Shown: piece by piece, positions 1,323 through 62,089 of the stretch
Numbering within the stretch: the first letter of the stretch is position 1
Layout: each line of letters opens with the position of its first letter
DNA from: a virus
Lineage: Duplodnaviria; Caudoviricetes
Length of the DNA: 64,000 nucleotides
Virus record (IMG/VR): IMGVR_UViG_3300028887_000070
Location: 1 to 64,000 of that record
Reading direction: 5' to 3' (one strand)
Notes under the pieces: model-generated
Database searches by the model: none
Told to the model about the DNA's origin: nothing
What the model saw: the letters and a program-made list of their open reading frames with translations, nothing else
Position numbers and translations under genes: made by a program

Positions 1323-1334
1323 TATAAAAGGGTT
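1323..1334 (-). promoter_or_regulatory. Late-type promoter, AACC variant (nrdD)
   Basis: AACC-CTTTTA-TA. Confidence 0.55.
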
Positions 1335-1351
1335 AGAGGCCCTGTTATTGC

Positions 1352-2647
1352 TTACTGAATGGTGGTTCTGGACTTATTGAAGCCTCCATCTATAACACGC
1401 TGATCATTCAGATAGAGAGTATCAATGTAGATGACTATGCTGGTGATGAGTTTAGGAGGATATCCCTTTACTGAGAGCATCATAGTCTTCCAATTCATCT
1501 CAGTATCAAGGAATGCATCATCGCAATAGACTCTGATATCCATGAATACCTCTGGAGATATGAAACGATCCTTGTGTTCATTGATGAACTTGAGAAGTTC
1601 ACCCTCAAACAGCTCTCCCATGTTAATCTCGAATGGTCCTGGAGCATCGGCCTGGTAATCAGACTCTATATACTTTAGCCATCCCCTCTCATTCATATCT
1701 GGAGGAGGTGTACCCTGCTTGAATGCAATCATAAGAGCACCATCTATAGCATAAGCAGACTTAGTTTGAGTAGAATAGATCTGTTCTGTCTTGGTATGAT
1801 ACACATAAAGCTGCATACCAGGGAAACGAACGTTGATATTCATCTCTATACCGAAGTCTGTGAGAAGATGTCCTGTTCTGTTACCATCATCCTTAGAGAT
1901 AGACTCAAAGCCTACTCTAATAGGAAGGTCATCCATACGTACATAGTAGTCTTCTCTACCAGTCATATTGTTGAATCTGAAGAGAATCGGCAAAAAAGAA
2001 TGGCGATTGAGCCATGTAAGGAACTCTATAGGGTTCTTGATTCTGGCATTCTCACAATCTATCTTAAAACCAGCATCTGATGCCACACTCAGCATCAGAC
2101 TATAAGGGATAAGATAGTCGTTAGTAGCATCTCTGGTCTCCGAAAGACCTATTCTGAAAGCGAGTTTCATGAACTTGAACAGATCAAGTTGCTTTGCCCT
2201 TGTAGGACACTTGATTCTGAAGGTAAAGTTCATGAGTTCCATCTCCATCTTCATCATTACGTAACGATGATTGACTGGATCTTGAATGAATGAACGGTCT
2301 ATAGGAGTAGTGTTTACAAACATCTCCAGACCAAAGAGGTTAGTATCGATCATAGCACGATCATAAGTATCGTCAAGCTGACAAGACATAGTACATGTAC
2401 ATGTATCATCGCTTCCCTTAACGATAACTTTGTCCTTAGGAAGTCTTATAGTCTCTCCAAAGACATGGCTTCCATCGACAAAAAAGTAAGAGAAGAAGTC
2501 CTTAGGGAACTTCTCGAGGAACCACTTCTTCACATACTCTATACAGATAGCATGATTGTGAGATAGTGGAGCTACAGTGCAGTAGTGATTCAGGATATGT
2601 TCCTGCTTATACCTATGGAACTGTACAGGAGTGTATCTATGCGACAT
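1352..2647 (-). CDS. Probable virion structural protein (late gene)
   Basis: About 430 aa ORF; SD GAAAGGAG before ATG 2647; late promoter motif upstream. Confidence 0.5.
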   Translation of the reverse strand: MSHRYTPVQFHRYKQEHILNHYCTVAPLSHNHAICIEYVKKWFLEKFPKDFFSYFFVDGSHVFGETIRLPKDKVIVKGSDDTCTCTMSCQLDDTYDRAMIDTNLFGLEMFVNTTPIDRSFIQDPVNHRYVMMKMEMELMNFTFRIKCPTRAKQLDLFKFMKLAFRIGLSETRDATNDYLIPYSLMLSVASDAGFKIDCENARIKNPIEFLTWLNRHSFLPILFRFNNMTGREDYYVRMDDLPIRVGFESISKDDGNRTGHLLTDFGIEMNINVRFPGMQLYVYHTKTEQIYSTQTKSAYAIDGALMIAFKQGTPPPDMNERGWLKYIESDYQADAPGPFEINMGELFEGELLKFINEHKDRFISPEVFMDIRVYCDDAFLDTEMNWKTMMLSVKGYPPKLITSIVIYIDTLYLNDQRVIDGGFNKSRTTIQ

Positions 2648-2688
2648 ATACACCTCTCCTTTCTAGTAAAAATAAACTGGTGATAGTT

Positions 2689-2700
2689 TACTCAGATGTT
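2689..2700 (-). promoter_or_regulatory. Late promoter AACA-N6-TA
   Basis: AACA-TCTGAG-TA. Confidence 0.7.
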
Positions 2701-2725
2701 CGAGCTCTACCACCAGTCATTTTTC

Positions 2726-3160
2726 TTACTTCTGCTGCTGTTCTTCAAGGTTCTGCATGTAAGTACAGAACTCTTCATAACCGATTAGTCGGTCATAATC
2801 GTCCTCAGCAGGCTGCCATGGGACGAACTTTTCTGTTTCTATATATGACACTATCGCCATGAACTTCTGTCCAGGGAGTGTCTGAGGATCCTCCATCTTA
2901 TTGAATGATTCGTCGTAGCACTTCAATGTATAGAAGAGGATTCCATATCCCATAAAGTCTTGTGTAACATGAATCACTTGACAAAGTGCTCTTAATACTT
3001 CACCAGTGTCAGGATTGATAGTGTTTCTGTCATAGTAAGTTACAAGATCTCCCACCTTAAGATGGATAGGAGTTCTATCGTTACCCTTCTGTACAACACT
3101 CTTAGAAGCATTGTATACAAACTCGAATGGATTTGGGCTAGTCTTCTTTCTCGCTTTCAT
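2726..3160 (-). CDS. Hypothetical protein
   Basis: Last gene of a tightly coupled early operon (4750 to 2726). Confidence 0.7.
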   Translation of the reverse strand: MKARKKTSPNPFEFVYNASKSVVQKGNDRTPIHLKVGDLVTYYDRNTINPDTGEVLRALCQVIHVTQDFMGYGILFYTLKCYDESFNKMEDPQTLPGQKFMAIVSYIETEKFVPWQPAEDDYDRLIGYEEFCTYMQNLEEQQQK

Positions 3161-3593
3161 GTTTATCAGTTGATCTCCTTCCCTGATTGATCATTCTTTT
3201 GCGTTCTCGTTCAGTGATGTCGCCTGAAGCGTTGACGTCATCTATATGAACGTTCTTACGACGCTCTATGCCTCTGATGATACCTGAAGCGATGATATCA
3301 AGGTTACGGGTACTAGCATCTTCTATAATCATCTTTACAATCTCTACTGACTTAGGACCTGTAAGATACTGATTCTCTCTATGATCTTCTGCCTCAAAGT
3401 ACTCTATTGAGTATTCGTATGGTCCATGCATATAGATGATCTTTGATGAGTTCTTATCATCCTCAAAGATTGTTATCTTGCTAAACTTGATGATGTATCC
3501 TGAGTTAAGTAAGATAGTAGTGTTTGTTCCATCAACGGTCTTAGGACCGAAGATGGGATTGTTTGATGAGACAATCTGATCGTAGTTATTCAT
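3138..3593 (-). CDS. Hypothetical protein
   Basis: SD AAAGGAGA; operon context. Confidence 0.75.
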   Translation of the reverse strand: MNNYDQIVSSNNPIFGPKTVDGTNTTILLNSGYIIKFSKITIFEDDKNSSKIIYMHGPYEYSIEYFEAEDHRENQYLTGPKSVEIVKMIIEDASTRNLDIIASGIIRGIERRKNVHIDDVNASGDITERERKRMINQGRRSTDKHESEKED

Positions 3594-3614
3594 GGCACTA
3601 TGTCTCCTTTGCTT

Positions 3615-4322
3615 TTAGATGACTGGCTTACCGTCAATCTTGTTAAGATAGTATCCGTAAAGATCTTTGAATTCTCCATACTCTCCAGCAAACGGCCCAG
3701 AGTTCTCTTTAGCTGAGATCAAGATATCATCTATAGATCCAGTGTTTGTTGTTGTGTGGCAGAAATCATCATCGTAAGCATACTTCTTAGCAGCGAGGAT
3801 TGTAGCCTCTTCAGAGTCCTTTGCCTTTATCTTTACTGTATGATGAATGATCTCTTCTATGCAGACTTCAAACTCTTCATCGTCTTCATGAATGAAGTCT
3901 GAGATAGTCATGAATTCCTGATCTTCTGGAGCATCATGCTGGTTCTCGCAATCCCAAAGCATATCATACATCTCTTTACGCTCTTCTTCTGAGAGTTCTC
4001 TATAGATATCCTTTGGATCGCATGTGGTTCTTTCCTTAGATATAAGGTCTTCTTTAGCGAGCATACTTCCGCAACGGTTTACTATAACCTTGTCTTCAAT
4101 TGTTGCTGGCTGGTTTGGGTCGGCATCGCATCCTCTAATAGCAAAGTAGTGGATGCCTTCTGGTAATGTTTTATAGAGTTCGTTGAACTCTCTTCCTGTT
4201 GTCATAAGAACCTTCTTACCGAGTACATTCTTTACTAAGAACTCTTCCATGAAGATTCTTCTCTCTTCTTCTTCTGTAGGCTCTGTATAGCCTGTATTTT
4301 CGTAATCGAACTTATTCATCAT
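3615..4322 (-). CDS. LPD28-like plus DpnD/PcfM-like domain protein
   Basis: LPEGIHYFAIRGCD..PATIEDKVIVNRCGSML resembles LPD28; FEVCIEEIIHHTVKIKAKDSEEA...KY resembles DpnD/PcfM. Confidence 0.6.
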   Translation of the reverse strand: MMNKFDYENTGYTEPTEEEERRIFMEEFLVKNVLGKKVLMTTGREFNELYKTLPEGIHYFAIRGCDADPNQPATIEDKVIVNRCGSMLAKEDLISKERTTCDPKDIYRELSEEERKEMYDMLWDCENQHDAPEDQEFMTISDFIHEDDEEFEVCIEEIIHHTVKIKAKDSEEATILAAKKYAYDDDFCHTTTNTGSIDDILISAKENSGPFAGEYGEFKDLYGYYLNKIDGKPVI

Positions 4323-4503
4323 TGTCCTCCTGTTCGTTTTCGAGTATGGCGATCTTTCTGTTGACTTCGTCTAAACGTTCTCTGAGTGTATCCTGAGACG
4401 AAGGACGTAGGCACACTTCCATCATCACTTCTATCTGTTCTCTCTCATTGTAAAGTCTTGTAAGATCGCTCATATCATTTTCCTCCTCTGATGACTTTGA
4501 CAT
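4312..4503 (-). CDS. Small coiled-coil hypothetical protein (true start may be the internal Met at 4473)
   Basis: SD GAGGAGG precedes the internal ATG; overlaps neighbours. Confidence 0.6.
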   Translation of the reverse strand: MSKSSEEENDMSDLTRLYNEREQIEVMMEVCLRPSSQDTLRERLDEVNRKIAILENEQEDNDE

Positions 4504-4750
4504 TGTAAGCTATGTCAAAGTATGATTCTGGCGATGCGTCATACACGATATTGTATACTTCGAGTATGGAGCCGTCATCACATTTGGTTCTTGCTATCTT
4601 AAGGTTAAGCTGTTTGATTCCTATGGTCTCTTTCTCCCAGAAGGTGATGGCATCCATAAAGATAGTACCAATCAGTTCCTTCTTATCAGAAGTTTTCAAC
4701 CATTCGTCTGTGCTGTTCTTCTTGTACAGTATGTAGACTGTATCGCCCAT
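4475..4750 (-). CDS. Hypothetical early protein
   Basis: SD AAAGGAGG; first gene after an early promoter. Confidence 0.75.
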   Translation of the reverse strand: MGDTVYILYKKNSTDEWLKTSDKKELIGTIFMDAITFWEKETIGIKQLNLKIARTKCDDGSILEVYNIVYDASPESYFDIAYNVKVIRGGK

Positions 4751-4810
4751 TGTCTGTACCTCCTTTTTGTTTAGATTACCAGGAAGCCGAAACGACTTCC
4801 TGGCACTTAT

Positions 4811-4820
4811 ATAGTATATA
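4811..4820 (-). promoter_or_regulatory. Early promoter
   Basis: TATATACTAT followed by a 5' hairpin. Confidence 0.65.
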
Positions 4821-4825
4821 ACTTG

Positions 4826-5812
4826 TTAGAACTTTGATATGGCTCCACCGTTGATAGTGATAACGTCCCAGCTCTTGCCAAGATTGCTGTTAGTTGCTCT
4901 ACCAGTAGAACGGTCTATAATTGTTTCTGCGATGAGTTCTGGGTTAGGTCTTGGGTAGTTTGGAACTGACTGTCCAGTTGTTGTGTCAATTACGTCGAAT
5001 GATGCTGCTCCAGTAGAATCGTCAAGAACTACAACCTCTTTGATATTGGGGTTGTGCTCAAGAATCATACGATTCTGCTCTGGAGAGATAGTCTGCATGT
5101 AACTGCCATATCCAGCGTCTACAATATCTCCAGAAGGAGTTATCATTGTACCAGAACCCATCATACCAGGATTAGCGATAGTGTTCTGAGAAGTCTGCTG
5201 AAGGAATGGAGGAAGATTACCAGTGTTGATAGGCGTATTGATATATGCATTGTACATAGCTGCCATGCTTCTATCATCGTCTTCTGCCATCTGAAGTTCT
5301 TTAGTTGCTTGATAACGTTTCATCTCAAGTTCATGAGACTTAGTTGTTACAGCATTAAGTTCTTTGATAGCGGTTAGCTTGTTACCAAGGATACCACAAA
5401 TAGATTCTCCAAGGTTGCTGATGTAGGTATATCTACCTTTCATCTGCTTGTTGTTTCTGATAGCATCAAACTCATTCTTCAATTCGATAGCCATAGTATC
5501 CATCTGCTGGATAGTACCACGAATCATACCTACACCTTCAGCGTAGGTCATTTCATAAGGCTCGTTTGATGTGCAAAGAGGAACGTAAGGCTGTGCTTTA
5601 GGAGCTTCAGCAGGAATTGAAATAGTCTGAGTAGTTGGGAGCGCTACTGCACTAGCTGTCTGCTCTTCAGGCTTCTTCTTTGGAGGACGTCCTCTCTTCC
5701 TTTTTTCGGGTTCTGCTTTTGGTTCTGGTGCCGACTCTGCAGTTGCCGTTGGCTCGACAACCTCAATGTCAATGATTGAACTACCCTGATAGGGTTTTAC
5801 AGATTCAAACAT
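4826..5812 (-). CDS. Hypothetical protein with AT-hook-like motif and coiled coil
   Basis: KRKRGRPPKKK motif; SD AAAGGAGG; late promoter. Confidence 0.7.
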   Translation of the reverse strand: MFESVKPYQGSSIIDIEVVEPTATAESAPEPKAEPEKRKRGRPPKKKPEEQTASAVALPTTQTISIPAEAPKAQPYVPLCTSNEPYEMTYAEGVGMIRGTIQQMDTMAIELKNEFDAIRNNKQMKGRYTYISNLGESICGILGNKLTAIKELNAVTTKSHELEMKRYQATKELQMAEDDDRSMAAMYNAYINTPINTGNLPPFLQQTSQNTIANPGMMGSGTMITPSGDIVDAGYGSYMQTISPEQNRMILEHNPNIKEVVVLDDSTGAASFDVIDTTTGQSVPNYPRPNPELIAETIIDRSTGRATNSNLGKSWDVITINGGAISKF

Positions 5813-5837
5813 GAATTGTACCTCCTTTGGTTAAATT

Positions 5838-5849
5838 TATAAGAGTGTT
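5838..5849 (-). promoter_or_regulatory. Late promoter
   Basis: AACA-CTCTTA-TA. Confidence 0.7.
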
Positions 5850-5860
5850 GGCTGTATCAG

Positions 5861-5872
5861 AACATAATGGTA
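5861..5872 (+). promoter_or_regulatory. Late promoter of candidate sRNA
   Basis: AACA-TAATGG-TA. Confidence 0.55.
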
Positions 5873-6010
5873 AAGGAAGCATAGAACGGGTGGTGTTTCC
5901 TTTCATGGTGTCATAGTCCTCCTAGTTGCTAGTGATTTGGCTGATCATTAGTACGAAGACAATTAACCTCTCTAGAAGACTGGTAGGGTTCTTCCCTACC
6001 AGTCCTTCTT
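5872..6010 (+). ncRNA. Candidate small RNA with exposed anti-SD/anti-AUG segment
   Basis: Late promoter at 5861-5872, no ORF, 5' hairpin, CATAGTCCTCCT at 5912-5923, intrinsic terminator at 5978-6010. Confidence 0.5.
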
Positions 6011-6030
6011 ACGCATGGTTCGTGAATGTG

Positions 6031-6070
6031 TTATATTGTACCATATTGTACTATCTTGTAGCTATTGAAC
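6031..6070. repeat. Imperfect tandem 10-bp direct repeats
   Basis: TTATATTGTA CCATATTGTA CTATCTTGTA GCTATTGAAC directly upstream of the DNA polymerase promoter. Confidence 0.55.
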
Positions 6071-6078
6071 GAGCTCCT

Positions 6079-6090
6079 AACCATTAAATA
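6079..6090 (+). promoter_or_regulatory. Late-type promoter, AACC variant (DNA polymerase)
   Basis: AACC-ATTAAA-TA. Confidence 0.55.
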
Positions 6091-6141
6091 ATCAAGTAAT
6101 CGTACGTGTTTGGGACGATTACGTTCAAAGGAGGACTTTCA

Positions 6142-8142
6142 ATGATACAGATAGGAAACTACCCTTTGCAATACGACTTATCTCTATTGCAGACAATCTA
6201 TCATAGACCAAAGAAGAACAAGAACGGTACATACAGTGACATTCCAGACTCAATGGATCTTGTAATCAAGGACAATGTGAGTGGTGAGAAGTTCATTGAG
6301 ACTATAGAGAATCCAGAGTATACTTGGTATAAGATAAAGAACGAGGTATACATAGACTACAATCTTGCTTTCATAGAGAAAGAGAAGTGTGATGCGATAA
6401 CTGTTCCATATAGAAGACTTCTTAAGAGCATAGCAGAAGCAACTGGTAATGAGACATTCTACGACACCAATGCGGAGAATGGAGATTATAAGAACAATCA
6501 GAGACTTCATGAACATGTAAGAGTCATGGGTTCAGATATGAACATCGAAGACTTCTATAGATTTCAGTTCGGTGAGTCTTATAAGAATGCATTCGGACCG
6601 ATAGATAAGAGCTATCTCGATATCGAGGTTGACTCTAGAACAGCTAAGGGTGACTTCGTAGAACCAGGTGAGTGTCCAATCAATGCAGTGACATTCATAG
6701 ACGATAGAACTCAGACAGTATTCACCTTACTTCTTAGAGATCCATACAATCCCTTATGTCTGGAGTTCGAGAAGTTATTGAACAGTGGCGGATTTGAAGC
6801 AATAGCTAAAGACTTTGTTATCAATGCTGTTGGTGGAATGGAGAAAGCTAAGAAGTATCGTGTAGATACTCTTCAGTTCTCAACGGTTATGTATACTGAC
6901 GAGAAGGAGTTGATTAAGACTCTGTTCGATGTAATCAACAAGCTTGAACCAGACTTCTTGTTGGCATGGAACATGGCGTTCGATATCCCATACATCATCG
7001 AAAGATGTAAGAAGTTAGAGATGAAACCTGAAAAGGTGATGTGTCATCCAGACTTCAGATACAAGGAAGTTAGTTACTTTATCGATGATAAGAACTATAA
7101 TGAGTTTGCTGAGAGAAACGACTACTGTAAGATAAGTAGTAAGACAGTATACTTAGATCAGCTCATTCATTTCGCTAGTAGACGTAAGGGACGTTCAGCA
7201 ATCCCGAATTTCAGACTCGATAGTATAGCAGAGATGACAGTAGGCTTCGGTAAGCTTGACTATCATCACATCTGTGAGAAGCTTGAAGATCTTCCACAGA
7301 AGGACTATCTTACATTCGTACTGTACAATATCATGGACGTTATCTCTCAGTACTGTATCGAGAACAAGGTGAACGATGTAGGTAATGCATACAACAACGT
7401 TCTTCTGAACAACACTCGTATCAGTAAGATATATCGCCAGACGGTATACCTGAAGAATAGAGCCTTTAAGTCATACTGGAGACAGGGCTTCATCATGGGT
7501 AACAACAATAACAAGAATAACACCAAGACGAAGTTCCCAGGTGCTTGGGTATCTGACCCGACAAAGCTTGGACCTTACTCTAAGATGATAGTGAACGGTA
7601 AGCCTATCATGGTATTCAGAAACCTGAACGACTATGACTATAAGAGCCTTTACCCATCTATCACATCAGAACTCAATCTTGCAGCTAACACAATCATTGC
7701 TCGTATCATCATACCTGATCAGGTATATAAGAACGAGAACAGGTTTGCAAGAGAGGATTACAAGTATAAGAGAGAAGGACAGTTCCTTGAGGATTATCAG
7801 TCTCATCAGTGGCTTGAGTTCTATCATAGATGGTTCCATCTCGCTTCATATGAAGAGATGTATGATGATGTCATAACCTACTTCTCAGATATTGTACATC
7901 CGAGAGGTAAGCTTGATCTTCATTGTACAGAGGGAAGATATCTGTTCTATAAGGTACCGAACAGTACTACTCAGACATCTCCATTTGTTCCAAAGTGGGA
8001 GCAGAATGTGATGGATGAGAAAACTGAGTATCCACATAAGCAGTTCCCATTCAATGATGAAGTCAGAACTTTCTCAGAGTTCTATAACGAGATAGAGTCA
8101 AGAGAGGAGAACTGTTATAGTAGAGAGGTAGTAGAGGTATGA
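6142..8142 (+). CDS. Family B DNA polymerase, N-terminal subunit (3'-5' exonuclease plus motif A) of a split polymerase
   Basis: ExoI YLDIEV, ExoII AWNMAFDIPYI, ExoIII YNIMDV, motif A DYKSLYPS; motifs B and C absent; SD AAGGAGG before ATG 6142. Confidence 0.9.
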   Translation: MIQIGNYPLQYDLSLLQTIYHRPKKNKNGTYSDIPDSMDLVIKDNVSGEKFIETIENPEYTWYKIKNEVYIDYNLAFIEKEKCDAITVPYRRLLKSIAEATGNETFYDTNAENGDYKNNQRLHEHVRVMGSDMNIEDFYRFQFGESYKNAFGPIDKSYLDIEVDSRTAKGDFVEPGECPINAVTFIDDRTQTVFTLLLRDPYNPLCLEFEKLLNSGGFEAIAKDFVINAVGGMEKAKKYRVDTLQFSTVMYTDEKELIKTLFDVINKLEPDFLLAWNMAFDIPYIIERCKKLEMKPEKVMCHPDFRYKEVSYFIDDKNYNEFAERNDYCKISSKTVYLDQLIHFASRRKGRSAIPNFRLDSIAEMTVGFGKLDYHHICEKLEDLPQKDYLTFVLYNIMDVISQYCIENKVNDVGNAYNNVLLNNTRISKIYRQTVYLKNRAFKSYWRQGFIMGNNNNKNNTKTKFPGAWVSDPTKLGPYSKMIVNGKPIMVFRNLNDYDYKSLYPSITSELNLAANTIIARIIIPDQVYKNENRFAREDYKYKREGQFLEDYQSHQWLEFYHRWFHLASYEEMYDDVITYFSDIVHPRGKLDLHCTEGRYLFYKVPNSTTQTSPFVPKWEQNVMDEKTEYPHKQFPFNDEVRTFSEFYNEIESREENCYSREVVEV

Positions 8143-8825: not shown

Positions 8826-8873
8826 GATTAGTCCCAGAGAGGTCTACTCTCTGGGCTATTCTTTGTCTCACGA

Positions 8874-8885
8874 AACATTATAGTA
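8874..8885 (+). promoter_or_regulatory. Late promoter (portal)
   Basis: AACA-TTATAG-TA. Confidence 0.75.
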
Positions 8886-15341: not shown

Positions 15342-15353
15342 TATACTGATGTT
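15342..15353 (-). promoter_or_regulatory. Late promoter (sheath-tube)
   Basis: AACA-TCAGTA-TA. Confidence 0.75.
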
Positions 15354-16114: not shown

Positions 16115-16126
16115 TAATAGATGGTT
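16115..16126 (-). promoter_or_regulatory. Late-type promoter, AACC variant
   Basis: AACC-ATCTAT-TA. Confidence 0.55.
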
Positions 16127-20789: not shown

Positions 20790-20801
20790 TATTAGAGTGT
20801 T
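20790..20801 (-). promoter_or_regulatory. Late promoter
   Basis: AACA-CTCTAA-TA. Confidence 0.7.
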
Positions 20802-26400: not shown

Positions 26401-26412
26401 TACATAGATGTT
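26401..26412 (-). promoter_or_regulatory. Late promoter
   Basis: AACA-TCTATG-TA. Confidence 0.7.
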
Positions 26413-28616: not shown

Positions 28617-28628
28617 TACTAGAATGTT
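28617..28628 (-). promoter_or_regulatory. Late promoter within paralogue array
   Basis: AACA-TTCTAG-TA. Confidence 0.7.
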
Positions 28629-31759: not shown

Positions 31760-31771
31760 TATAGAAATGTT
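31760..31771 (-). promoter_or_regulatory. Late promoter
   Basis: AACA-TTTCTA-TA. Confidence 0.7.
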
Positions 31772-31792
31772 CAGGTGGTCAAATAGTGGTGA

Positions 31793-31804
31793 AACATCTG
31801 AGTA
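31793..31804 (+). promoter_or_regulatory. Late promoter
   Basis: AACA-TCTGAG-TA. Confidence 0.7.
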
Positions 31805-33399: not shown

Positions 33400-33482
33400 G
33401 TTGTTCATGGATACTTTTACATATGTACATCTCTACCCAAACACCAACGATACAGTAATCAAAGATGAAAGGAGCGTGCCAT

Positions 33483-35980: not shown

Positions 35981-36028
35981 TCGCTTCCCTGAACTATCCT
36001 ATAAACTAAGAATAGGAGGTTCACTCTA

Positions 36029-42157: not shown

Positions 42158-42169
42158 TACGGAGATGTT
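42158..42169 (-). promoter_or_regulatory. Late promoter (terminase)
   Basis: AACA-TCTCCG-TA. Confidence 0.7.
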
Positions 42170-43103: not shown

Positions 43104-43188
43104 ACCCATATAGCTAACTTTTACGATACCCCCTACATATATATAATCAGTGCCTACATGGACACTTAAAACAAAGGAGGACACACAT

Positions 43189-44071: not shown

Positions 44072-44767
44072 ATGGATAATAAAGCTCAGCAACAGAAGAT
44101 CACTAGTATGGCGATAGACGCTAAGTGTATACTTGACTACGACCTTACTATCATGAAGATCTTCCAATACAATTACAATCATCCAGACTATGTAGACCAA
44201 AAGGTTATGCACTATTCACTTGCTCAACTTAGGAATGCTCTGGTGAAGCGTAAAGACACTAATCCGCTGACTATATGTATTCCCGAAGGTGTTATGACTA
44301 GAGAGAATCTTGAACAGATTCTTATGGATATCTATAAGAACAATGAATACGACATCTACAAGTATATCACTGTTACTGGAACTAGTAAGCTTATCTATAT
44401 GATGAACGATCATAGTTCGTTTGATGTAACTGTAGTATGTAAAGATGAAACTGAGAAGGGTCTGATAGAAGGACGCACCAAGTCATTTAAGACTGTAATC
44501 GGCTACGACTCCATAGACCCCAAAGACTTCAATAGCTTCATGTTTAAGGACGTCAGAGATGTCTTCGCTCTTCCCTATAAGCTTGAGAAGAAGACTCTGT
44601 TCTTCCAGAACTATGAGTTCAACATCACCCGTGATACCGATGGAACTCCTGTTCTTAATGCTGAGTATGGAATGGCTCTAGTTAGTGCGGATAACTACCC
44701 TATACTTGTAGAGGTATACGACCACAATACTCTCGAATCTCTTTCTAAAGAGAGAACTAGTCAATAA
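44072..44767 (+). CDS. Hypothetical protein
   Basis: SD GAAAGGAGA. Confidence 0.7.
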   Translation: MDNKAQQQKITSMAIDAKCILDYDLTIMKIFQYNYNHPDYVDQKVMHYSLAQLRNALVKRKDTNPLTICIPEGVMTRENLEQILMDIYKNNEYDIYKYITVTGTSKLIYMMNDHSSFDVTVVCKDETEKGLIEGRTKSFKTVIGYDSIDPKDFNSFMFKDVRDVFALPYKLEKKTLFFQNYEFNITRDTDGTPVLNAEYGMALVSADNYPILVEVYDHNTLESLSKERTSQ

Positions 44768-46519: not shown

Positions 46520-46735
46520 GTGGCATACTCCGACCCATAAGGTACTGATGAGTAGAAACTAGTGTACCTGTACAGATATCCCTCTCTTGGACATGTGTGG
46601 GTATCGTTGGGGTTAGTGTCCTTTCAACACCATTCAAAGAGGTGGGTAGGGAGTTCATCTCCCTACCCATTCTCCCCAATCAAGTCTTACCAAACGCATA
46701 ACTTTACTATAACCGATATAATGGAGGTGTACCGT

Positions 46736-47518: not shown

Positions 47519-47520
47519 AT

Positions 47521-47530
47521 TATATACTAT
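47521..47530 (+). promoter_or_regulatory. Early promoter
   Basis: TATATACTAT. Confidence 0.65.
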
Positions 47531-47580: not shown

Positions 47581-49260
47581 ATGATACAATCAAACACCAC
47601 CCGCGACTACTACAACTTTCTTTACCCACAAAAGTATGGTGTAGTAGGAATCAACAATGACGAACAAGTTATATACGATCTGTTCAATCAGTACTTCGAA
47701 GTGCCACATTGGGTGGCTATCGATAACTGGATACCAACAGAAGATGACATAGTGTTCTATACAATCAAGAACGCTATAGTTATGCCTACGATCTCTGAGT
47801 TCTTTGGGATGAACCCAGCAGATCCAAACACTATTAACGTAAACTCCTTTATGGTAACGCCTAAGAGGTGTTACAACGGTGACGATCTGCGTCAGCATAT
47901 CTGTCACTATCTCAATTACTTCTGCAGGTTCTATGACCCTGATAAAGAACTTGCAGGCCACTATGTACGTATGAAACGTATGATCGACTTTGGTGTTACT
48001 ACACATGATGGTAAGACATATAAGTATACCAGAGACAACTTCATACTTGACATCCGTCGCTATATACTTGGATCTAGTATGTGTGCTAAGGTACTTAAGA
48101 TGAACGAAGATAACTACTCGCTCAAGCTTAACTACAAGAACAACACAAACCAGGCTCTTCAGTATAATGATACACACGGTAAGATCTTCATGGAGATATC
48201 TGTGTTTATGAACATACTTATCCCTCTCATTAGTCACTTCGTCTATAGGGAAAAGACGACTTCGACCCAGGAGATCGATGAGCTCTTTCAGACAATCTAT
48301 CAGTTCCTCTTTGATCGTTATATGAACACGGTAGATCTGAAAGCTAAGCTGTTTGAGACAGCCAACACTACAATCGCTAGAGACCAGAGAACAAACAAGG
48401 ACCTCTGGGATAAGAGTGAGATTAGAGGTATGGACATCTCTGTCAACTCTCTCGATGCTGTAGACACTCTTGTACTTCAGGTAATGCCTAAGTATAAGTA
48501 TAACCAGAACATGGTTATGTATAACTTCACCTCAATCAGAAATACTGCTATCCAGTATGCTGTTGGAATAGCGTATGAGTATGATTTGGTTCCACTCTCT
48601 TCCTCTAAGAGAGATGGTGAAGATTCCACTTCTCAGTTTGACAAGTTTGAGGCTACACTTGGTAAGGCTGATGAAGCTAAGTTCCTTCATAACACTGCAG
48701 TCGCCTATACTGTTATGAGAAACATTGAAAGTCACTATGGTCCTTTCACACAGGATCAGTTGAACTTCTATAAGATAGAACTCGGAAGAGGAGCTAAACC
48801 CGTCATCAACGCTTTCCAGTATAAGCTCATAACAAACTTCTTCGGTAAGCTGTTTGGTTCTGTTCTTCCTATGAAGACTATCAACCTCGATGAGTATATT
48901 GAACTTATGATATCCGCCAAGAAGATACTGATCAGTCAGAACTTCTGTATTCTTCCAGAAATCATTGCGGGAAGAGTAGTTAAGCTCTCGACTAGAACAG
49001 TTCTCAGTAAGAAGCATGAAGATATGCTTACAAGTAGTGAGCATTGGGCTCAGATAAGACACAAGTATATGGACAATCCAGTGATACTTGCTCGTATCAA
49101 AGCTGACTTTGCTGCTATAATATCTTCAGACTTCCAACTCATTCACTATGACCAAGAAACAAGAAAAGGCGATCAGTTCAACGGATTGCCAATCATTATC
49201 AACTCTGCTATAACATACAGTATTGTAGAAGAGTTCTTACTGTTTGAACTTATGACATAA
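47581..49260 (+). CDS. Probable sigma-like promoter-specificity subunit of the non-virion RNA polymerase (AR9 gp226/PhiKZ gp68 type)
   Basis: Helical ~560 aa protein under an early promoter, two genes from the chaperonin as in AR9 (gp228/gp226); inference from synteny. Confidence 0.45.
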   Translation: MIQSNTTRDYYNFLYPQKYGVVGINNDEQVIYDLFNQYFEVPHWVAIDNWIPTEDDIVFYTIKNAIVMPTISEFFGMNPADPNTINVNSFMVTPKRCYNGDDLRQHICHYLNYFCRFYDPDKELAGHYVRMKRMIDFGVTTHDGKTYKYTRDNFILDIRRYILGSSMCAKVLKMNEDNYSLKLNYKNNTNQALQYNDTHGKIFMEISVFMNILIPLISHFVYREKTTSTQEIDELFQTIYQFLFDRYMNTVDLKAKLFETANTTIARDQRTNKDLWDKSEIRGMDISVNSLDAVDTLVLQVMPKYKYNQNMVMYNFTSIRNTAIQYAVGIAYEYDLVPLSSSKRDGEDSTSQFDKFEATLGKADEAKFLHNTAVAYTVMRNIESHYGPFTQDQLNFYKIELGRGAKPVINAFQYKLITNFFGKLFGSVLPMKTINLDEYIELMISAKKILISQNFCILPEIIAGRVVKLSTRTVLSKKHEDMLTSSEHWAQIRHKYMDNPVILARIKADFAAIISSDFQLIHYDQETRKGDQFNGLPIIINSAITYSIVEEFLLFELMT

Positions 49261-52424: not shown

Positions 52425-52474
52425 CGCTGTTTCTTTTTTACACGTATTACATCACTATAAATGGAGGGATAACA

Positions 52475-55397: not shown

Positions 55398-55449
55398 TCG
55401 TTCATATAGAGGTCCAGTGGAGTAAAATCCACTGGATAACCTTTGCTGA

Positions 55450-55461
55450 AACATCTATATA
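55450..55461 (+). promoter_or_regulatory. Late promoter
   Basis: AACA-TCTATA-TA. Confidence 0.7.
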
Positions 55462-55482
55462 ATTACGAAAGGAGGAATCTGA

Positions 55483-56688
55483 ATGGGTAAGTTCATTAAC
55501 AAGTCCTATGTCAATACTATAGACGCCCTGCAACAGGGTCAGGTCAATAGAGTCAAGAACGCCAACTATCTCTTCAATGATAAGAAGCCAGTCGTATCAG
55601 ACTGGTATAATATGAACTCTACTGGTACTACGTTCGATGAAGGTACTAGAGCAGAGTATGCTAGTCTTAGTCATGCATCTCCTATAAGATACAACAAGAT
55701 CACTGGAGCAGTCTTCTATTCTAGCGGTATCAAGCTTGCTATGGATGTAGACTTCAACGAAGAAGGTCTCGGTCTTGCTTCTCAGCCTGCTATCTCTGGT
55801 GTAGTACTTCCTAATACATGGATTCCATATGCTGGAGATTATTTCTCCATTCAACACGCTGGAAAGGAGTGGTTGTACAAGGTCACTGCTACATCGTTTG
55901 ATACTATAGACAATGGTAACAACGTCTATAGCTTTGAGGCTATGCTGGACAACTATGGTATAGACGAGATTGAACAGCAGGTAGTAGATAGATTCAAGTT
56001 CGTGGTGAACAATATCGGTACTAACTTCTCTGCTGTCATTAGAGAGGACTCATACAATGCTATAGAGACTCTCGACAATCTTCTTGCTCAAATCAAGACA
56101 TACTTCGTAGCTATGTTCTTCAAGGAGTCTCTTCAGACCTTTGTATATCCTGGATCTTACGGAGAAGTCTATGATCCTTACATGATAGAGTTTCTTATGA
56201 GGCATTCTATCCTTACTGGATCGGATCCATACATCTATGTATCTCAGGCTATACAAGTACCTCAGACTCTTGTGCTTGACTACGACAAGACTTTCTTCAA
56301 AGCTCTTGAGACTAAGACTGTAGATCACTTCTGTAATCGTCCTGCTAATATCAATATCATCGAAGACATCTATAGTCTCTTCCATACTACTCTTGAGAAG
56401 TATTTCAAGGTAGACTATGCTGAGCCTATCTTCCAAGGTGGTTATGCTGTACTTGATCCAGTGATGATATCAGATGCTAAGGAAGGTATTGAGCGACAGA
56501 ATGACGATCCCAAGGCACTCAACAATATCATCACTCGCTACTTCCAAGACAAACCTCTTGACTCATCAATCGTTGAGATTTTCGATAACATAGACTACAA
56601 GCCTACACCGTACTTATTCTACGGTCTTCCGATGGCTCTGTTCTGTATCGAATCCCAGATACGTAATTTGATGAGTTCAACATCTTAG
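55483..56688 (+). CDS. Probable virion structural protein (possibly neck/connector)
   Basis: Late promoter; PYAGDYF...LYKVT pattern. Confidence 0.45.
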   Translation: MGKFINKSYVNTIDALQQGQVNRVKNANYLFNDKKPVVSDWYNMNSTGTTFDEGTRAEYASLSHASPIRYNKITGAVFYSSGIKLAMDVDFNEEGLGLASQPAISGVVLPNTWIPYAGDYFSIQHAGKEWLYKVTATSFDTIDNGNNVYSFEAMLDNYGIDEIEQQVVDRFKFVVNNIGTNFSAVIREDSYNAIETLDNLLAQIKTYFVAMFFKESLQTFVYPGSYGEVYDPYMIEFLMRHSILTGSDPYIYVSQAIQVPQTLVLDYDKTFFKALETKTVDHFCNRPANINIIEDIYSLFHTTLEKYFKVDYAEPIFQGGYAVLDPVMISDAKEGIERQNDDPKALNNIITRYFQDKPLDSSIVEIFDNIDYKPTPYLFYGLPMALFCIESQIRNLMSSTS

Positions 56689-56690
56689 TA
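56679..56690 (+). promoter_or_regulatory. Late promoter
   Basis: AACA-TCTTAG-TA. Confidence 0.7.
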
Positions 56691-56718
56691 ACTAAATCCT
56701 ACCTAAGGAGGGAATATA

Positions 56719-57138
56719 ATGGCTGAAGTATTAACAGTAGACGACCTTCTGATTGAAGCATGTGAAGAAGATGCTGAGATAGAAGAGGGCTACTTCTCAG
56801 AGAGTCTTAAGTTCATTCTCGATAGAGATATAGACGAAGACATCAACGATAACATGAACTCTATCTTCAGTGGTGAAGGACTTTCACTTGATGAGACTAT
56901 CATCAACCTTGTTGACCGTCTTGAAACAGAAGTGAATGATTCTGAATCTGGAGAAGCTAAACTCTACATAGCACCTGAAGAGATACATGACCCAATCGAA
57001 AGTGAACTTCCTGGAAGGTTCTCTTCAACCCTTTACGATTGGGTGGATGAAGACAATCCCGACCATGAGAAATCATGGTACGGAAATGATTCTGGCGAAT
57101 ACAACACTGGATATGACTCCATATTCGGTGATAACTAA
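56719..57138 (+). CDS. Acidic late protein, possibly internal head/scaffold
   Basis: Late promoter; very acidic. Confidence 0.65.
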   Translation: MAEVLTVDDLLIEACEEDAEIEEGYFSESLKFILDRDIDEDINDNMNSIFSGEGLSLDETIINLVDRLETEVNDSESGEAKLYIAPEEIHDPIESELPGRFSSTLYDWVDEDNPDHEKSWYGNDSGEYNTGYDSIFGDN

Positions 57139-57151
57139 GGAGGTACTAACA

Positions 57152-57526
57152 ATGGACGAATACATCAGAGACGTTATCGACAGTAAGCGTATGCTTGTTG
57201 TTGAGAGAGCTGTAGACGAAGACCTTCAGGCTGAGAAGGATCTCAGTATTGAAGTCAATACAGTTGTAGGAAAGTTCGTCGATGGTTTCATCTCTCAGGA
57301 AGAGATCGATGGTTGCCAGCTCTGCGAAGAGGAGCTTAATGGTACACTCGATGATCTTATAGATGATGCCGAAGCAGACGAGATTACATTATATGAGCCT
57401 GATACATTCTCCGACGATGACGGAGAACTTTCAGATATCAATGCTATACTTGACTCAGATATAGATCCCGAACTTCTTGAGCTGGACGATGATGAGTCTA
57501 TGTATTGTGAACCTAATGTAGACTAA
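57152..57526 (+). CDS. Acidic late protein
   Basis: SD AAGGAGG before ATG 57152. Confidence 0.65.
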   Translation: MDEYIRDVIDSKRMLVVERAVDEDLQAEKDLSIEVNTVVGKFVDGFISQEEIDGCQLCEEELNGTLDDLIDDAEADEITLYEPDTFSDDDGELSDINAILDSDIDPELLELDDDESMYCEPNVD

Positions 57527-57540
57527 GGGAGGTACTTACT

Positions 57541-58098
57541 ATGAACATCGTAAGAAAAAAGTGTATGCTCATTACACCTTGTAACGTAACATTCAAGATC
57601 TCAAGTGGTAAAGAGCTTAAGCCTAACACAAAGAGCATCGAGTTCGTATGGACTAAAGAGATACTCATCGCTATGAATAGTGGTATCAGAGTATTTGAGA
57701 TTGGTTCAGACGGCAAGCAGGTTCAGCTTGATAAGAGCAACTTCGACAAAATCAACGTTCTCATGGACTATCCTTCAGAGGAAAAGATAGAAGAGAAAAA
57801 AGAAGAGACTGTTGAAGAGGAAGCTCCAAAGGTTGAAGAGTCTGTAGCTGCTCCTACTCCTGTTGAAGCTCCAGTAGAGGAGCCTAAGGAAGAGCCTACT
57901 CCTGAAGAGACAGTAGATCCTGCAGAGGAGGAATCACCTTCTGAAGAAGATTACGAACCCGAAGATGAGACTACTGAAGAAGAGATCGACATGACACCTC
58001 AGGAAGATCCTGAAGCTAAGTACTATCAGAATGACTCTGAGGATGATTGTGACGAAGAGAAGCAAGACAACGAAGACGACGAGTTCAACGTTGACTGA
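57541..58098 (+). CDS. Glu/Pro-rich acidic protein
   Basis: SD GGGAGG. Confidence 0.65.
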   Translation: MNIVRKKCMLITPCNVTFKISSGKELKPNTKSIEFVWTKEILIAMNSGIRVFEIGSDGKQVQLDKSNFDKINVLMDYPSEEKIEEKKEETVEEEAPKVEESVAAPTPVEAPVEEPKEEPTPEETVDPAEEESPSEEDYEPEDETTEEEIDMTPQEDPEAKYYQNDSEDDCDEEKQDNEDDEFNVD

Positions 58099-58119
58099 TA
58101 AGAAACAATGCGTTTCTCG

Positions 58120-58370
58120 AAAAAGGATGCTGGGTCCATGTGCGGACCCAGCCTATTCTCTGTGTGTGACGAGATAAATATAGTTTTCGAACAAGTCATG
58201 TAGCAGTACTAATTACACGACTCGGCTTTTAAGACTTGGCACTCTTAGTAAGAACCGCCGCAAGTTTCAAAATCGTCCATGTGTCACACCTCCTTTCTGT
58301 GGCTCATACACTCTAAAGGAGACAAGGAGTGTACAAGATCTGCTATTATCTATATCTTTAAACGCAGACA
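58120..58370 (-). ncRNA. Candidate structured early RNA carrying an 11-aa micro-ORF (58245-58280, MDDFETCGGSY)
   Basis: Early promoter at 58376-58385; SD AAAGGAGGT; stems; terminator at 58120-58153. Confidence 0.45.
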
Positions 58371-58375
58371 TTTTA

Positions 58376-58385
58376 ATAATATATA
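58376..58385 (-). promoter_or_regulatory. Early promoter
   Basis: TATATATTAT. Confidence 0.6.
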
Positions 58386-58437
58386 GCCCTAAACACGTAG
58401 TTTAACGACGGTAGGATTTCCCTACCGTCGATTCAAA

Positions 58438-60144
58438 CTAGAACACTGGGTCAATAGGCTTGAATGATGGATCAGGCTGTATAGTGAGACTATAGAGGTT
58501 CATAATGCACTCCTTTGTGACGTTACGAGGACTTATACCGTCCATACCTATAAGGTTGATCTTACTGTCAGCAGCCTTCTCAAGTTCAGCATTAGCTTCG
58601 AGAGTATAGATACCCTTAACGATAGCAGTATCACCATCGAAGTCCATACCCATTACATCTATATTACCGTTAGAGATAGTAAGAGTAGGAGAAAACAGAG
58701 CAGCAGTGTTTCTACCAAGGTCTTCTGTTCTGATCTTAGGCCACCATCTATAGACTTTACCATCCATCATGATAGGCTCAGTCTCATTGGTAGACTTGAT
58801 GTTTATCTTAGATGGATACTGGTTGAGGTATCTGTCTATAGGGAATCTAGTTATCAGACACATCTTATCTGCTGTCATCTCACATGCCGCAAGATAGAAG
58901 AGATCACACCAAGTCATAGGCCTTTCTATGAGAGGATAACCTGAATAGTCTTTTTGATCCATGATATGCTCTGATGGTACTTTTCTTCCTTTGAAGAAGA
59001 TACACATCTTGTTGACATCGAGATCGAGCTTCTTCTCTTTTATAGTCTTTGTGAGTTCTGTTTTGTCTATAGGAATAGGTATAGGCTGGAAACGATTAGA
59101 ATAACCATGAACGAATCTCTCTATCTGTTTCACTATCTCTGTATCAGAGAACATGATCTGATAGTCTTCTATAGGAATAGCAGTCTCTACACCTTTCTTA
59201 TCCACTACAGGATACATAGTCTTACCACCGAACTCGTTCTCGAAGAAACGACGACAATAGTAGATGATGAATGGCTGGAAGAGTACTATAGCTGCCTCAA
59301 GAGGACATGCAGCATGATCCATATCGACCATGAGATCTTCAATGTTCTCCACCTTCAGGTTAGCAGCAGACATAACAAGACGTACACTATAGTCTACTGT
59401 CTTGTACATTACACCCTTCTTTACGATACCCATCTTTCCAGGAAGGTTACCGCTAGTCTCTTCACCATTGATTACAGTTCCAGCACCAAACCAATCGTAG
59501 ATCTGTTTTAGTGTAGCCTGTATTCTTCCCTTTGTAGCGTCTGCAAGACTTAGTCCATACTCAGCGGTCTCTTTAAGAGCCTTTGTAGCAATGATGAGAG
59601 AGCTATAGAGTTTGTTGATCTCTCCTACACCTATACTAGCTTGCTTAGTATCAACGTCTCTATAGTATGGTGGGATTACAGGACACTTCTTAACCCACAT
59701 CTGTCCCTTTACCTTCTCAAGGAACTTGATCTTGGTAGCACGATCTTTAGAACTAGACTCTTTAGCAGACCAATCTATCTTATCATAGTTTGCTTTGAAC
59801 CAGTTTAGGCCAGTAGAGCCATTAGGATCTTTAACAAGTTGTCCCTTAGCATCGATAGAGAAGTTCTCTGAGCCATGTACTATAGCTTCTACTTTCTTAT
59901 CAAGAGTACAGAGTGTTTTATAGACTAGAGGATTGAGGAACCATCCACCAAGATCTATGTATGCATAGATACCAGCTCTCTCAGCTTTAGTGATTCCGAA
60001 GATCTCGTTAGACAGAAGTCCATCTGGTGCTGGTGTTGGACCGTTAAAGAAGACAGGGTTGGTGATCTCTTTACAGTCGTTAACTTTGACGAAACGCTCT
60101 ACATCAAGTATACTTATATCGAAATGATTAGTTGACGAACTCAT
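58438..60144 (-). CDS. Multisubunit RNA polymerase beta' subunit, catalytic fragment (probably virion RNAP, PhiKZ gp180 type)
   Basis: DGLLSNEIFG, PVIPPYYRD, LPGKMG, SVRLVM, ITRFP and catalytic MDFDGD. Confidence 0.9.
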   Translation of the reverse strand: MSSSTNHFDISILDVERFVKVNDCKEITNPVFFNGPTPAPDGLLSNEIFGITKAERAGIYAYIDLGGWFLNPLVYKTLCTLDKKVEAIVHGSENFSIDAKGQLVKDPNGSTGLNWFKANYDKIDWSAKESSSKDRATKIKFLEKVKGQMWVKKCPVIPPYYRDVDTKQASIGVGEINKLYSSLIIATKALKETAEYGLSLADATKGRIQATLKQIYDWFGAGTVINGEETSGNLPGKMGIVKKGVMYKTVDYSVRLVMSAANLKVENIEDLMVDMDHAACPLEAAIVLFQPFIIYYCRRFFENEFGGKTMYPVVDKKGVETAIPIEDYQIMFSDTEIVKQIERFVHGYSNRFQPIPIPIDKTELTKTIKEKKLDLDVNKMCIFFKGRKVPSEHIMDQKDYSGYPLIERPMTWCDLFYLAACEMTADKMCLITRFPIDRYLNQYPSKINIKSTNETEPIMMDGKVYRWWPKIRTEDLGRNTAALFSPTLTISNGNIDVMGMDFDGDTAIVKGIYTLEANAELEKAADSKINLIGMDGISPRNVTKECIMNLYSLTIQPDPSFKPIDPVF

Positions 60145-60169
60145 CGTAGTACCTCCTTATAAGTTTGAT

Positions 60170-60181
60170 TATAGAATGGTT
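60170..60181 (-). promoter_or_regulatory. Late-type promoter, AACC variant (RNAP beta')
   Basis: AACC-ATTCTA-TA. Confidence 0.6.
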
Positions 60182-60216
60182 CACGCTTTAGAATCAGGTT
60201 CAAACGCAGGGTGGAC

Positions 60217-60226
60217 TATATATTAT
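60217..60226 (+). promoter_or_regulatory. Early promoter
   Basis: TATATATTAT. Confidence 0.65.
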
Positions 60227-60294
60227 AAAGGTGTACAAGAGAGTTGGTGATTCGATACTCTTGAGTACTATACTATACTAAGGAGGATCACATT

Positions 60295-60543
60295 ATGATC
60301 AATAGTTACAATCCACAGGCAGCACCAGCTCTGCCAACAAGAGAGGCTCAGATGACAGGACAGCCTATTAGCCTCGAGAGTCTGATGAATGAGTTCACAT
60401 TCATCACGACGAGCATCAATAATGGTACTCTGTCTGCTAGCGATCCTGAAGTTCAGATAAGAATTACAGAGCTGCAGAGTAAAATCACAGAGCTGCAGGG
60501 TGTATATCACTATGCAGCTGGAATGGGCATGATCCAGCGCTAG
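60295..60543 (+). CDS. Small early protein
   Basis: Own early promoter, SD AAGGAGG and terminator (60564-60599). Confidence 0.7.
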   Translation: MINSYNPQAAPALPTREAQMTGQPISLESLMNEFTFITTSINNGTLSASDPEVQIRITELQSKITELQGVYHYAAGMGMIQR

Positions 60544-60606
60544 ATCGTGCCCAGCCTCCTTGTAATCGGTCTGCAGCCCCAGCAGGCCGATTATTTTTTG
60601 TCTTGG

Positions 60607-60618
60607 AACATCACTATA
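60607..60618 (+). promoter_or_regulatory. Late promoter
   Basis: AACA-TCACTA-TA. Confidence 0.7.
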
Positions 60619-60644
60619 ATTATACAACCCTGAAAGGAGGACTC

Positions 60645-62078
60645 ATGATGGGTAGACACTATAGATGTATATACTGCTCTAAGTCTCTTGATAGAGACAA
60701 GCTTGTAACCCATATGGAGAAGGAACACTCTGATATGCTTAATCCCGATAAGGGATTCACTGCTAATCATGTAGTGTTCGATATATGTAACAACAAACAG
60801 CCTGTAGGAGATGCTCGTGGAGTTTGTAGAATCTGTAAGGCTCCTACTATGTGGAACGAGAAGATCGTTCGCTATGATGCTTTCTGTTCAGATCGCTGTA
60901 AAGCTGTAGCTAGACAGAATGCTGTAAAGAACATGATGAAAGTCTACAACAAGCCTACTCTTCTCAATGACATGGATCATCAAGAGAAGATGCTCGCTAA
61001 TAGATCAATCTCTGGTAAGTATAGATGGTCTGACGGAACATACAAAACTTACGTAGGAAACTATGAGAAGAAGTTCCTTGAGTTCTGTGATGAAGTTCTT
61101 GGCTTAGATTCCTCAGACCTCGTAACACCTGGTCCTACTTTAAAATATGAACATAATGGTGAAGAACACGTCTGGATCACTGACGCTCTTTATCTCCCCT
61201 ATAACCTTGTATTTGACATCAAGGATGGTGGAGACAACAAGAACACCAGAGAGATGCCAGAGTACCGATCTAAACAGATTGCTAAGGAAAAGATGATTAC
61301 TGATCAAGGCGAGTATAGTTATATTAGACTTACTAATAACGAGTTCGTTCAGCTACTCGGTATATTCGCTGAGCTTAAAAAGATCAGCATGGAACCAGAC
61401 CCACATACTATCTCTAGGATCCATGAAAGCCTGATTGGAGGGGCACTTCCCCCTGCAGGTGCTACGGATGTTAATCCACACCCTTACCTGTTGAACTATC
61501 ATACCTTTGCAGGTGGTGATGAGGGCTATGCTCTCTGCAACGATATAGCTTCAGATTGTTGTCTGACAGTGGATGATAACGGTAAGATTAAGAAGAAGAA
61601 CACCAAGAAGCTCCTAGCTCAGAAGGAATGTATTATATACAAGTACAAGGGCACTAACGGAGAGCGAATCATAAGAGAAGCTTACTCTAAGTATAAGTCT
61701 CAGAAGACTGTAAGAGTAGACTACTTCGCTAGGTTGGTATCTGAGATGTCTGACATACTAACGCCAGACCAACTCGACTACTCCCCAGTCCTTGAACAAG
61801 TTTCTATATCTTCACTCGGAGAGAAGTTCACATCTCTTTGTGTTACCATAGAAACTGCAGTAGATGAACTAGTTGGTAACAGAACTCTCTCTGTACCAGT
61901 AGTAGATCCATACAAGATGGAACAGTGTCGACACATCTTGAGGAATCATAAGAACCTCACCGTGAAAGAATGTGTCGATGGTGGATACTATGTGGAGAAC
62001 ACTATAACAAAAACTAGGTCTAGACTCATAGACTCTATAGAGGAGATTGATAAATCCCTCCTAGATTCAGTGAGCTGA
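60645..62078 (+). CDS. Zn-finger plus TnsA/T4 gp4-like nuclease (head completion-type)
   Basis: CIYC...H...H finger; YVGNYEKKFLEFCD...WITD...FDIK PD-(D/E)xK-like pattern; late promoter. Confidence 0.5.
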   Translation: MMGRHYRCIYCSKSLDRDKLVTHMEKEHSDMLNPDKGFTANHVVFDICNNKQPVGDARGVCRICKAPTMWNEKIVRYDAFCSDRCKAVARQNAVKNMMKVYNKPTLLNDMDHQEKMLANRSISGKYRWSDGTYKTYVGNYEKKFLEFCDEVLGLDSSDLVTPGPTLKYEHNGEEHVWITDALYLPYNLVFDIKDGGDNKNTREMPEYRSKQIAKEKMITDQGEYSYIRLTNNEFVQLLGIFAELKKISMEPDPHTISRIHESLIGGALPPAGATDVNPHPYLLNYHTFAGGDEGYALCNDIASDCCLTVDDNGKIKKKNTKKLLAQKECIIYKYKGTNGERIIREAYSKYKSQKTVRVDYFARLVSEMSDILTPDQLDYSPVLEQVSISSLGEKFTSLCVTIETAVDELVGNRTLSVPVVDPYKMEQCRHILRNHKNLTVKECVDGGYYVENTITKTRSRLIDSIEEIDKSLLDSVS

Positions 62079-62089
62079 ACATATAAGTA
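62078..62089 (+). promoter_or_regulatory. Late promoter
   Basis: AACA-TATAAG-TA. Confidence 0.7.

Follow-up and report, generated by a model that had tools for sequence, protein, structure and literature searches.

The first 64 kb of a Caudoviricetes phage record of 231,846 bp (IMGVR_UViG_3300028887_000070; GC content 41%) carry an AAC-N6-TA motif upstream of genes, which is probably a thymine-tolerant late promoter of the AR9 type, read by the phage's own non-virion RNA polymerase and equipped with a tighter start element. These 64,000 nucleotides (nt) are referred to as the window, and the full record is present in bovine gut metagenomes. In AR9 and PBS1, the late promoter AACA-N6-T(A/G) is recognized by a non-virion RNA polymerase that contains gp226 (PMC5312081, PMC9209446; PDB 7S01, 7UM0). 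Uracil has been proposed as this enzyme's way to avoid host DNA, and close gp226 orthologs have been described only from phages shown or presumed to contain uracil, with an absolutely conserved valine (PMC9209446, PMC7598289). A previous sequence-only reading of the window assigned the motif to the AR9 consensus and suggested either uracil-substituted DNA with uracil-dependent recognition or an evolved thymine-tolerant version. The motif and the two-polymerase scheme are already known; the survey of pocket residues, the difference in the RTAA element and the rooted test are added here.

The 15 exact AACA-N6-TA sites of that reading were confirmed at the stated left-end coordinates and have the same orientation as the gene that follows; its nine variants exist as AAC[CGT] or TACA forms. 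When both strands are counted, the window contains 43 exact matches, of which 27 lie within genes and 16 outside, and the listed sites cover 15 of the 16 intergenic ones, while an AACT variant before GroEL (44755..44766, +) had been missed. Most sites are placed just upstream of genes as described, except for those at 15342 and 42158, which are 72-82 nt from the gene start, and the one at 5861 (+), which has no start within 280 nt. An exact match at most 60 nt upstream was found for 12 of the 61 genes in the window compared to 1.9 ± 1.3 in dinucleotide shuffles (maximum of 8 in 300), and for 33 of 194 genes genome-wide compared to 6.6 ± 2.7. For spacers of N4 to N8, the numbers of upstream sense matches were 14, 7, 33, 4 and 4, and only 2 antisense matches with N6 were found. 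The enrichment is limited to the N6 spacer and the sense strand. The motif had been described as genome-wide; it is enriched upstream of genes, but this enrichment is positional and does not extend to the genome as a whole.

The consensus needs some revision. A trained matrix detected 60 genes compared to 1.1 in shuffles and shows AAC at -11 to -9, a weak -8 position, a G-poor spacer and purine-T-A-A at the end. A purine at -2 and an A at +2 occur in all 15 listed sites, and both together in none of the 28 other exact matches. AAC, the N6 spacing and TA were thus retained from the proposed AACA-N6-TA, the A at -8 is weak, and the -2 purine and +2 A have to be added, giving AAC-[A/T/C]-N5-R-T-A-A as a working consensus. 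The motif is under purifying selection: compared to a relative with 92% identity, 5 of 720 positions in the 12-base core are substituted, as opposed to about 11% just upstream (p 4e-16). Genes with the AAC motif upstream include those for the portal, terminase, prohead protease, tape measure and virion polymerase, and also replication genes, which matches the gene classes in AR9, where late and continuously expressed genes carry the motif (PMC5312081). AAC at -11 to -9 and the spacing to TA are also the same in AR9.

For a base-by-base comparison, AR9 sites were picked by the same procedure, resulting in 65 sites compared to 64 of this phage. The -2 purine is present in 58/64 phage sites and 28/65 AR9 sites, and the +2 A in 57/64 and 24/65, whereas the -8 A is relaxed in the phage (33/64 compared to 58/65). 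This tightening of RTAA may offset the lost uracil filter; the specificity gained amounts to about 2 bits when each genome's own background is used, and to none with a uniform background. Across the clade of uncultured relatives of this phage, the motif was found 352 times compared to 78 expected. AAC-N7-T(A/G) is also about twofold enriched upstream of genes in phiR1-37, LPJP1 and S6, and for phiR1-37 a late consensus had not been found as of PMC5312081. No enrichment was detected in the outgroup AgentSmith. Literature searches, with subscription journals outside their coverage, returned no paper on promoters of this clade.

The phage encodes the polymerase that such a promoter requires, which supports its membership in the AR9-type late promoter family, as initially suggested. 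The DNA polymerase and the non-virion beta subunit have AR9, PBS1, phiR1-37, S6 and LPJP1 as first matches, and all AR9 polymerase subunits of the virion and non-virion sets have homologs in the genome. The non-virion enzyme consists of four core subunits (genome 77561-79114, -; 135313-137544, +; 141798-143594, +; 213306-215447, +) and a homolog of gp226, the sigma-like promoter-specificity subunit (47581..49260, +; 559 amino acids). This homolog was identified by sequence (E 8e-14) and is located after GroEL and a g227 homolog, in the same order as in AR9. A sequence search of solved structures missed it, and only the fold search found a match: its model (mean predicted local distance difference test score of 87) matches AR9 gp226 best (7s01_A, E 5e-15, Z 26.4), followed by phiKZ gp68 (Z 11). 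A second motif, TATATA(T/C)TAT, matches the early consensus of AR9 and is found upstream of the gp226 homolog and of three genes for core subunits or the operons they belong to; the early motif TATATATTAT is likewise shared with AR9. Within the window, TTATATACTAT occurs at 4811..4821 (-) and at 47520..47530 (+), the latter before the gp226 homolog, as with AR9 g226.

The gene content suggests that the virion DNA is very probably thymine DNA. A ThyX gene (genome 162806-164188, +) scores above the Pfam and NCBIfam cut-offs, and has an intact RHR...SQRY motif that also occurs in most relatives. ThyX or ThyA was found in 36 of 39 near-complete relatives (ThyX in 30, ThyA in 6, never both), but in none of the six cultured uracil-clade phages. 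The lack of both thymidylate synthases has been published as marking uracil phages (PMC7824862). The encoded dCTP deaminase has bifunctional enzymes that form deoxyuridine monophosphate (dUMP) as its best structural relatives, among which 2QLP is a bifunctional dCTP deaminase (PMC4827122). It thereby resembles the bifunctional deaminase-dUTPases. Monofunctional and bifunctional dCTP deaminases are split by an arginine determinant. A P-loop protein adjoins ThyX and may be a thymidylate kinase, although no family match confirms this. Uracil DNA and its uracil-dependent reading are hence not supported by these genes, by the near-universal thymidylate synthases in the clade or by the gate position of gp226, which is not conserved.

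In AR9, the uracil at -10 is located between gp226 I207 and beta-subunit R363 and is bonded to K375; the methyl group of thymine is kept out by V206, and the V206G exchange lets thymine in (PMC9209446). V206 belongs to the 2.1bis helix, and the aromatic Y210 stacks on the G at -9. When aligned without gaps, the gp226 homolog has D274 at the position of V206, K278 at that of Y210 and Y314 at that of Y246. The V206 position is valine in 6/6 uracil-clade proteins, but shows 13 residue states among 97 metagenomic homologs. The position of Y210 becomes Met, Lys or Ile and is aromatic in none of the 97. The I207 position is Leu or Ile in 95/97, W208 is conserved, as in AR9, and the Y246 position is aromatic or Leu in 94/97. 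The beta-subunit residues R363 and K375 are kept as R396 and K408, and R363 is kept in 22 of 30 clade members. Among the tested features of uracil-dependent recognition, this phage therefore has Arg363 and Lys375, but neither Val206 nor Tyr210. A free gate position would fit a loss of the uracil requirement, but it is no proof of thymine binding because Asp and Val both carry the clashing beta carbon. Thymine tolerance would therefore need a reshaped pocket.

Under the favored thymine-tolerant reading, the packaged virion polymerase would first read the TATATA(T/C)TAT early promoters, so that the gp226 homolog and the core subunits are made. Transcription by the complete enzyme of five subunits would then begin 11 nt after AAC, with the first A of RTAA, in front of genes for the virion, packaging, the virion polymerase and replication. 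The phage would make its own deoxythymidine monophosphate (dTMP) from dCTP via dUMP and ThyX, so that the template bases at -11 and -10 would be thymines. These could be read in an AR9-like pocket in which the beta-subunit wall (R396, K408) is kept and the gp226 wall is reshaped, so that the methyl group is no longer excluded. The purine at -2, the A at +2 and the constrained spacer would add part of the specificity that uracil gives AR9.

Several observations weigh against this mechanism. Asp retains the beta carbon responsible for the clash with the methyl group in AR9, and V206G alone has been shown to admit thymine (PMC9209446). Valine is kept at the V206 position in 8 of 38 relatives, most of them with ThyX. 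The -11 uracil requirement of AR9 comes from a DNA conformation stacked on Y210, a residue that this phage does not have, and only 10 of 30 relatives have retained K375. Distant relatives show a less pronounced tightening of RTAA.

An alternative is a different use of the same polymerase on thymine DNA, in which specificity lies outside the template-strand pocket and the non-template AAC and RTAA are read. This would be nearer to phiKZ, whose non-virion polymerase with gp68 uses the late promoter T(-3)ATG(+1) (PMC7618050; PDB 8QUE). Of the gp226 contacts, V206 and Y210 on the template side are free to vary, whereas Y246, which stacks on the non-template side, is mostly preserved, and the start element T/A-R-T-A resembles that of phiKZ (PMC7598289). 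With phiKZ, this phage shares predicted thymine DNA, a homologous sigma-like subunit and the similar T/A-R-T-purine at the start. It differs in that phiKZ has no AAC element at -11 and is distant on the tree. The exact AAC spacing, the conserved W208 and I207 positions and the frequent R363 argue against this alternative. It is considered unlikely, but it is the strongest of the rivals.

Less probable still is DNA that contains uracil, wholly or partly, with an enzyme that needs it at -11 and -10. The nearest cultured relatives are all uracil-clade phages, Asp274 could still block the methyl group, and neither a stand-alone dUTPase nor ThyA had a match in this genome. This is opposed by the intact thymidylate synthases across the clade, the unconstrained V206 position and dUTPase-family genes in 18 of 39 relatives compared to 0/6 uracil-clade phages. 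The uracil-clade jumbo phages, unlike this phage, all keep V206 and are without ThyX, ThyA and dUTPase-family genes. In addition, the genome has no homolog of the AR9 dCMP deaminase g221, nucleotidase g151, kinase g238 or Ugi g104, and its GC content is above the 25-33% of the uracil phages (28% in AR9). From the genes that the sequence-only reading proposed to search for in the rest of the genome, the dCTP deaminase was thus found and Ugi was not. Ugi was found in 0/40 clade genomes and is also undetectable in 4/6 uracil-clade phages; its absence was rejected as evidence against uracil since only 2/6 of these phages show one (PMC10303552). GC content was likewise rejected as a marker of uracil or thymine because the relatives range from 24 to 41%. 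A subclade of three genomes (G009, G012, G015) lacks both ThyX and ThyA, and a dUTPase-family gene is present in two of them; for this subclade, dTMP supply by the host is likelier than uracil DNA, though G012 merits attention.

The ThyX of the clade is a tandem form about twice as long as usual, in which the first domain is degenerate and the second is full, and its motif RHR-x6-SxR is one residue shorter than the usual RHR-x7-SxR. Together with the unassigned P-loop neighbor and the large share of genes without annotation, this could indicate that the tandem ThyX and the kinase produce a modified thymine or another modified pyrimidine that is read by the polymerase. This is very unlikely, as six relatives carry an ordinary ThyA instead, the Pfam and PHROGs scans found no base-modifying family, and the strong avoidance of restriction sites suggests unprotected DNA. 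Least probable of all are host sigma-A promoters with the TATAAT end as -10 box. Although 18/60 sites end in TATAAT, none of the 60 has TTGACA within one mismatch at 16-18 nt, and the key positions of a -10 box vary while the fixed bases fall on its least important ones. In addition, AGTAA occurs almost as often as TATAA, a start site located 7 nt downstream leaves the invariant AAC unexplained, and the phage encodes a cognate polymerase.

The history of the thymine-tolerant promoter was addressed with a tree of one gene, the non-virion beta C-terminal subunit. The 25 uncultured members form a clade (99/99) that is sister to six uracil-clade phages (99/98), with vB_BpuM-BpSp, phiR1-37, S6, Machias and LPJP1 in this sister clade and the phiKZ-like phages outside. 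Nesting the clade beside any of three uracil subgroups was rejected by the approximately unbiased test (p-AU 0.001-0.011; 23 rows, JD-Fnp7 left free). The cultured Fusobacterium phages JD-Fnp1 and JD-Fnp7 (PMC9670143) fall within the AR9-like group, and a word search of their publication found uracil, promoters and RNA polymerase all unmentioned. In the first 50 kb of JD-Fnp1 (ON464759, 1-50000), AAC-N7-T(A/G) was found 21 times compared to 3.2 expected. JD-Fnp7, unlike this phage, has neither ThyX nor ThyA, no gp226 profile match and a long branch, and its place in the tree is unsure; the gp226 profile also had no match in AgentSmith, and both results are uninformative. Since the motif is enriched in the clade, phiR1-37, LPJP1, S6 and JD-Fnp1, but not in AgentSmith, the promoter would predate the split. 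As the outgroup has thymine, the simplest history on this one-gene tree is that uracil was acquired once and later. A thymine-tolerant version, as was suggested, fits the evidence, but the tree of this one gene favors tolerance as the older state over a later development in this phage. It is quite possible, although only tentatively held, that template-strand reading of AAC-N7-TA is ancestral to the AR9-like group and arose on thymine DNA, that the Val206/Tyr210 gate was added later in the uracil branch, and that the clade keeps the thymine form, sharpened by RTAA. If so, it would be the first multisubunit polymerase in nature to read the template strand without requiring a modified base.

Within the window, late-type promoters precede genes on both strands. 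Those on the minus strand are located at 2689..2700 (AACATCTGAGTA(A), 53 nt before a 431-amino-acid gene), 5838..5849, 15342..15353 (82 nt before a 910-amino-acid gene, which is a tail sheath by gene order only, with the tail tube next), 20790..20801, 26401..26412, 28617..28628, 31760..31771 and 42158..42169 (72 nt before the terminase large subunit). On the plus strand, they are found at 8874..8885 before a portal homolog (AR9 g128), 31793..31804, 55450..55461 and 60607..60618 before homologs of the AR9 virion proteins g112 and g165 and the AR9 endonuclease g233, respectively, and at 56679..56690 and 62078..62089. The exact match at 5861..5872 (+) also has RTAA and faces a 200-nt intergenic stretch with hairpins; it is a possible upstream or small-RNA promoter. 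Two divergent back-to-back pairs are formed at 5838-5872 and 31760-31804. AACC variants precede the anaerobic ribonucleotide reductase gene (1323..1334, -; ATG at 1297), the N-terminal half of the DNA polymerase (6079..6090, +), a homolog of the AR9 virion protein g125 (16115..16126, -) and the virion RNA polymerase beta-prime N-terminal subunit (60170..60181, -; gene at 58438..60144, -, AR9 g145 homolog). An AACG variant is located at 33446..33457 (+), and AACT variants at 35992..36003 (+) and before the g227 homolog (46700..46711, +). The TACA variant at 52448..52459 (+) precedes a baseplate wedge homolog (AR9 g232), and the one at 43134..43145 (+), with T at -11, is AT-rich like the early motif and of uncertain class.

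The DNA polymerase is split into two halves, which have one promoter and a near-identical leader of about 45 nt in common (window 6079-6123, +; genome ~210401-210445, +). The leader contains an 8-bp hairpin directly before the ribosome binding site, which is kept in relatives, and its folding energy is no better than that of shuffles. It is possibly a shared operator, for which T4 gp43 offers a parallel.

The record is circular. Its two ends share an overlap of about 830 bp with 91% identity (window 1-1297, genome 227846-231846), and the anaerobic ribonucleotide reductase gene spans the junction. Because the ends overlap and one relative also crosses the junction, the genome is regarded as complete; two strain variants may be fused at the joined ends. 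CCGG is absent genome-wide (0 compared to 114 expected), ATTAAT is avoided (1 compared to 14.6), and AATT and CTAG occur at half the expected numbers. This avoidance suggests exposure to host restriction enzymes, contrary to full shielding of the DNA. Four uracil-clade phages show no avoidance of ATTAAT, and most relatives do not avoid A/T-only restriction sites. General palindrome avoidance was rejected as a marker of uracil or thymine since AR9 likewise avoids many sites and only the A/T-only sites differ, which is weak. GATC is avoided by JD-Fnp1 and JD-Fnp7 (2 compared to 148). The recovery of the phage from many metagenomes, a hint of amplifiable DNA, was given no weight as the library methods are unrecorded. 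RNA-library contigs with relatives (X22, X23) have a flat depth across opposing genes, so neither start sites nor expression can be read from them, and a transposase adapter end in one of these libraries is not clean evidence on DNA chemistry.

A tubulin/FtsZ-like, PhuZ-like gene (genome 132502-133845, +) below the Pfam cut-off lies downstream of a late-type promoter. While phiKZ forms a chimallin nucleus, no chimallin family was named in the general Pfam and PHROGs scans, in which no chimallin profile was included. Further Pfam matches among the aligned members from the window and the genome up to 88 kb comprise a Tad2-like anti-defence domain, LPD28, WDGH, an ABC transporter, BspA-type leucine-rich repeats and a sigma-70 region 4 helix-turn-helix.

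This promoter is uncoupled from uracil by a large clade that combines it with thymidylate synthases and a free gate position, and the motif alone is a poor ground for calling uracil DNA. Two questions are thereby made testable with recombinant protein, namely the evolution of the uracil gate and the specificity of a short promoter without uracil or a known nucleus. The cultured JD-Fnp1, which carries the motif, is a candidate for bench work.

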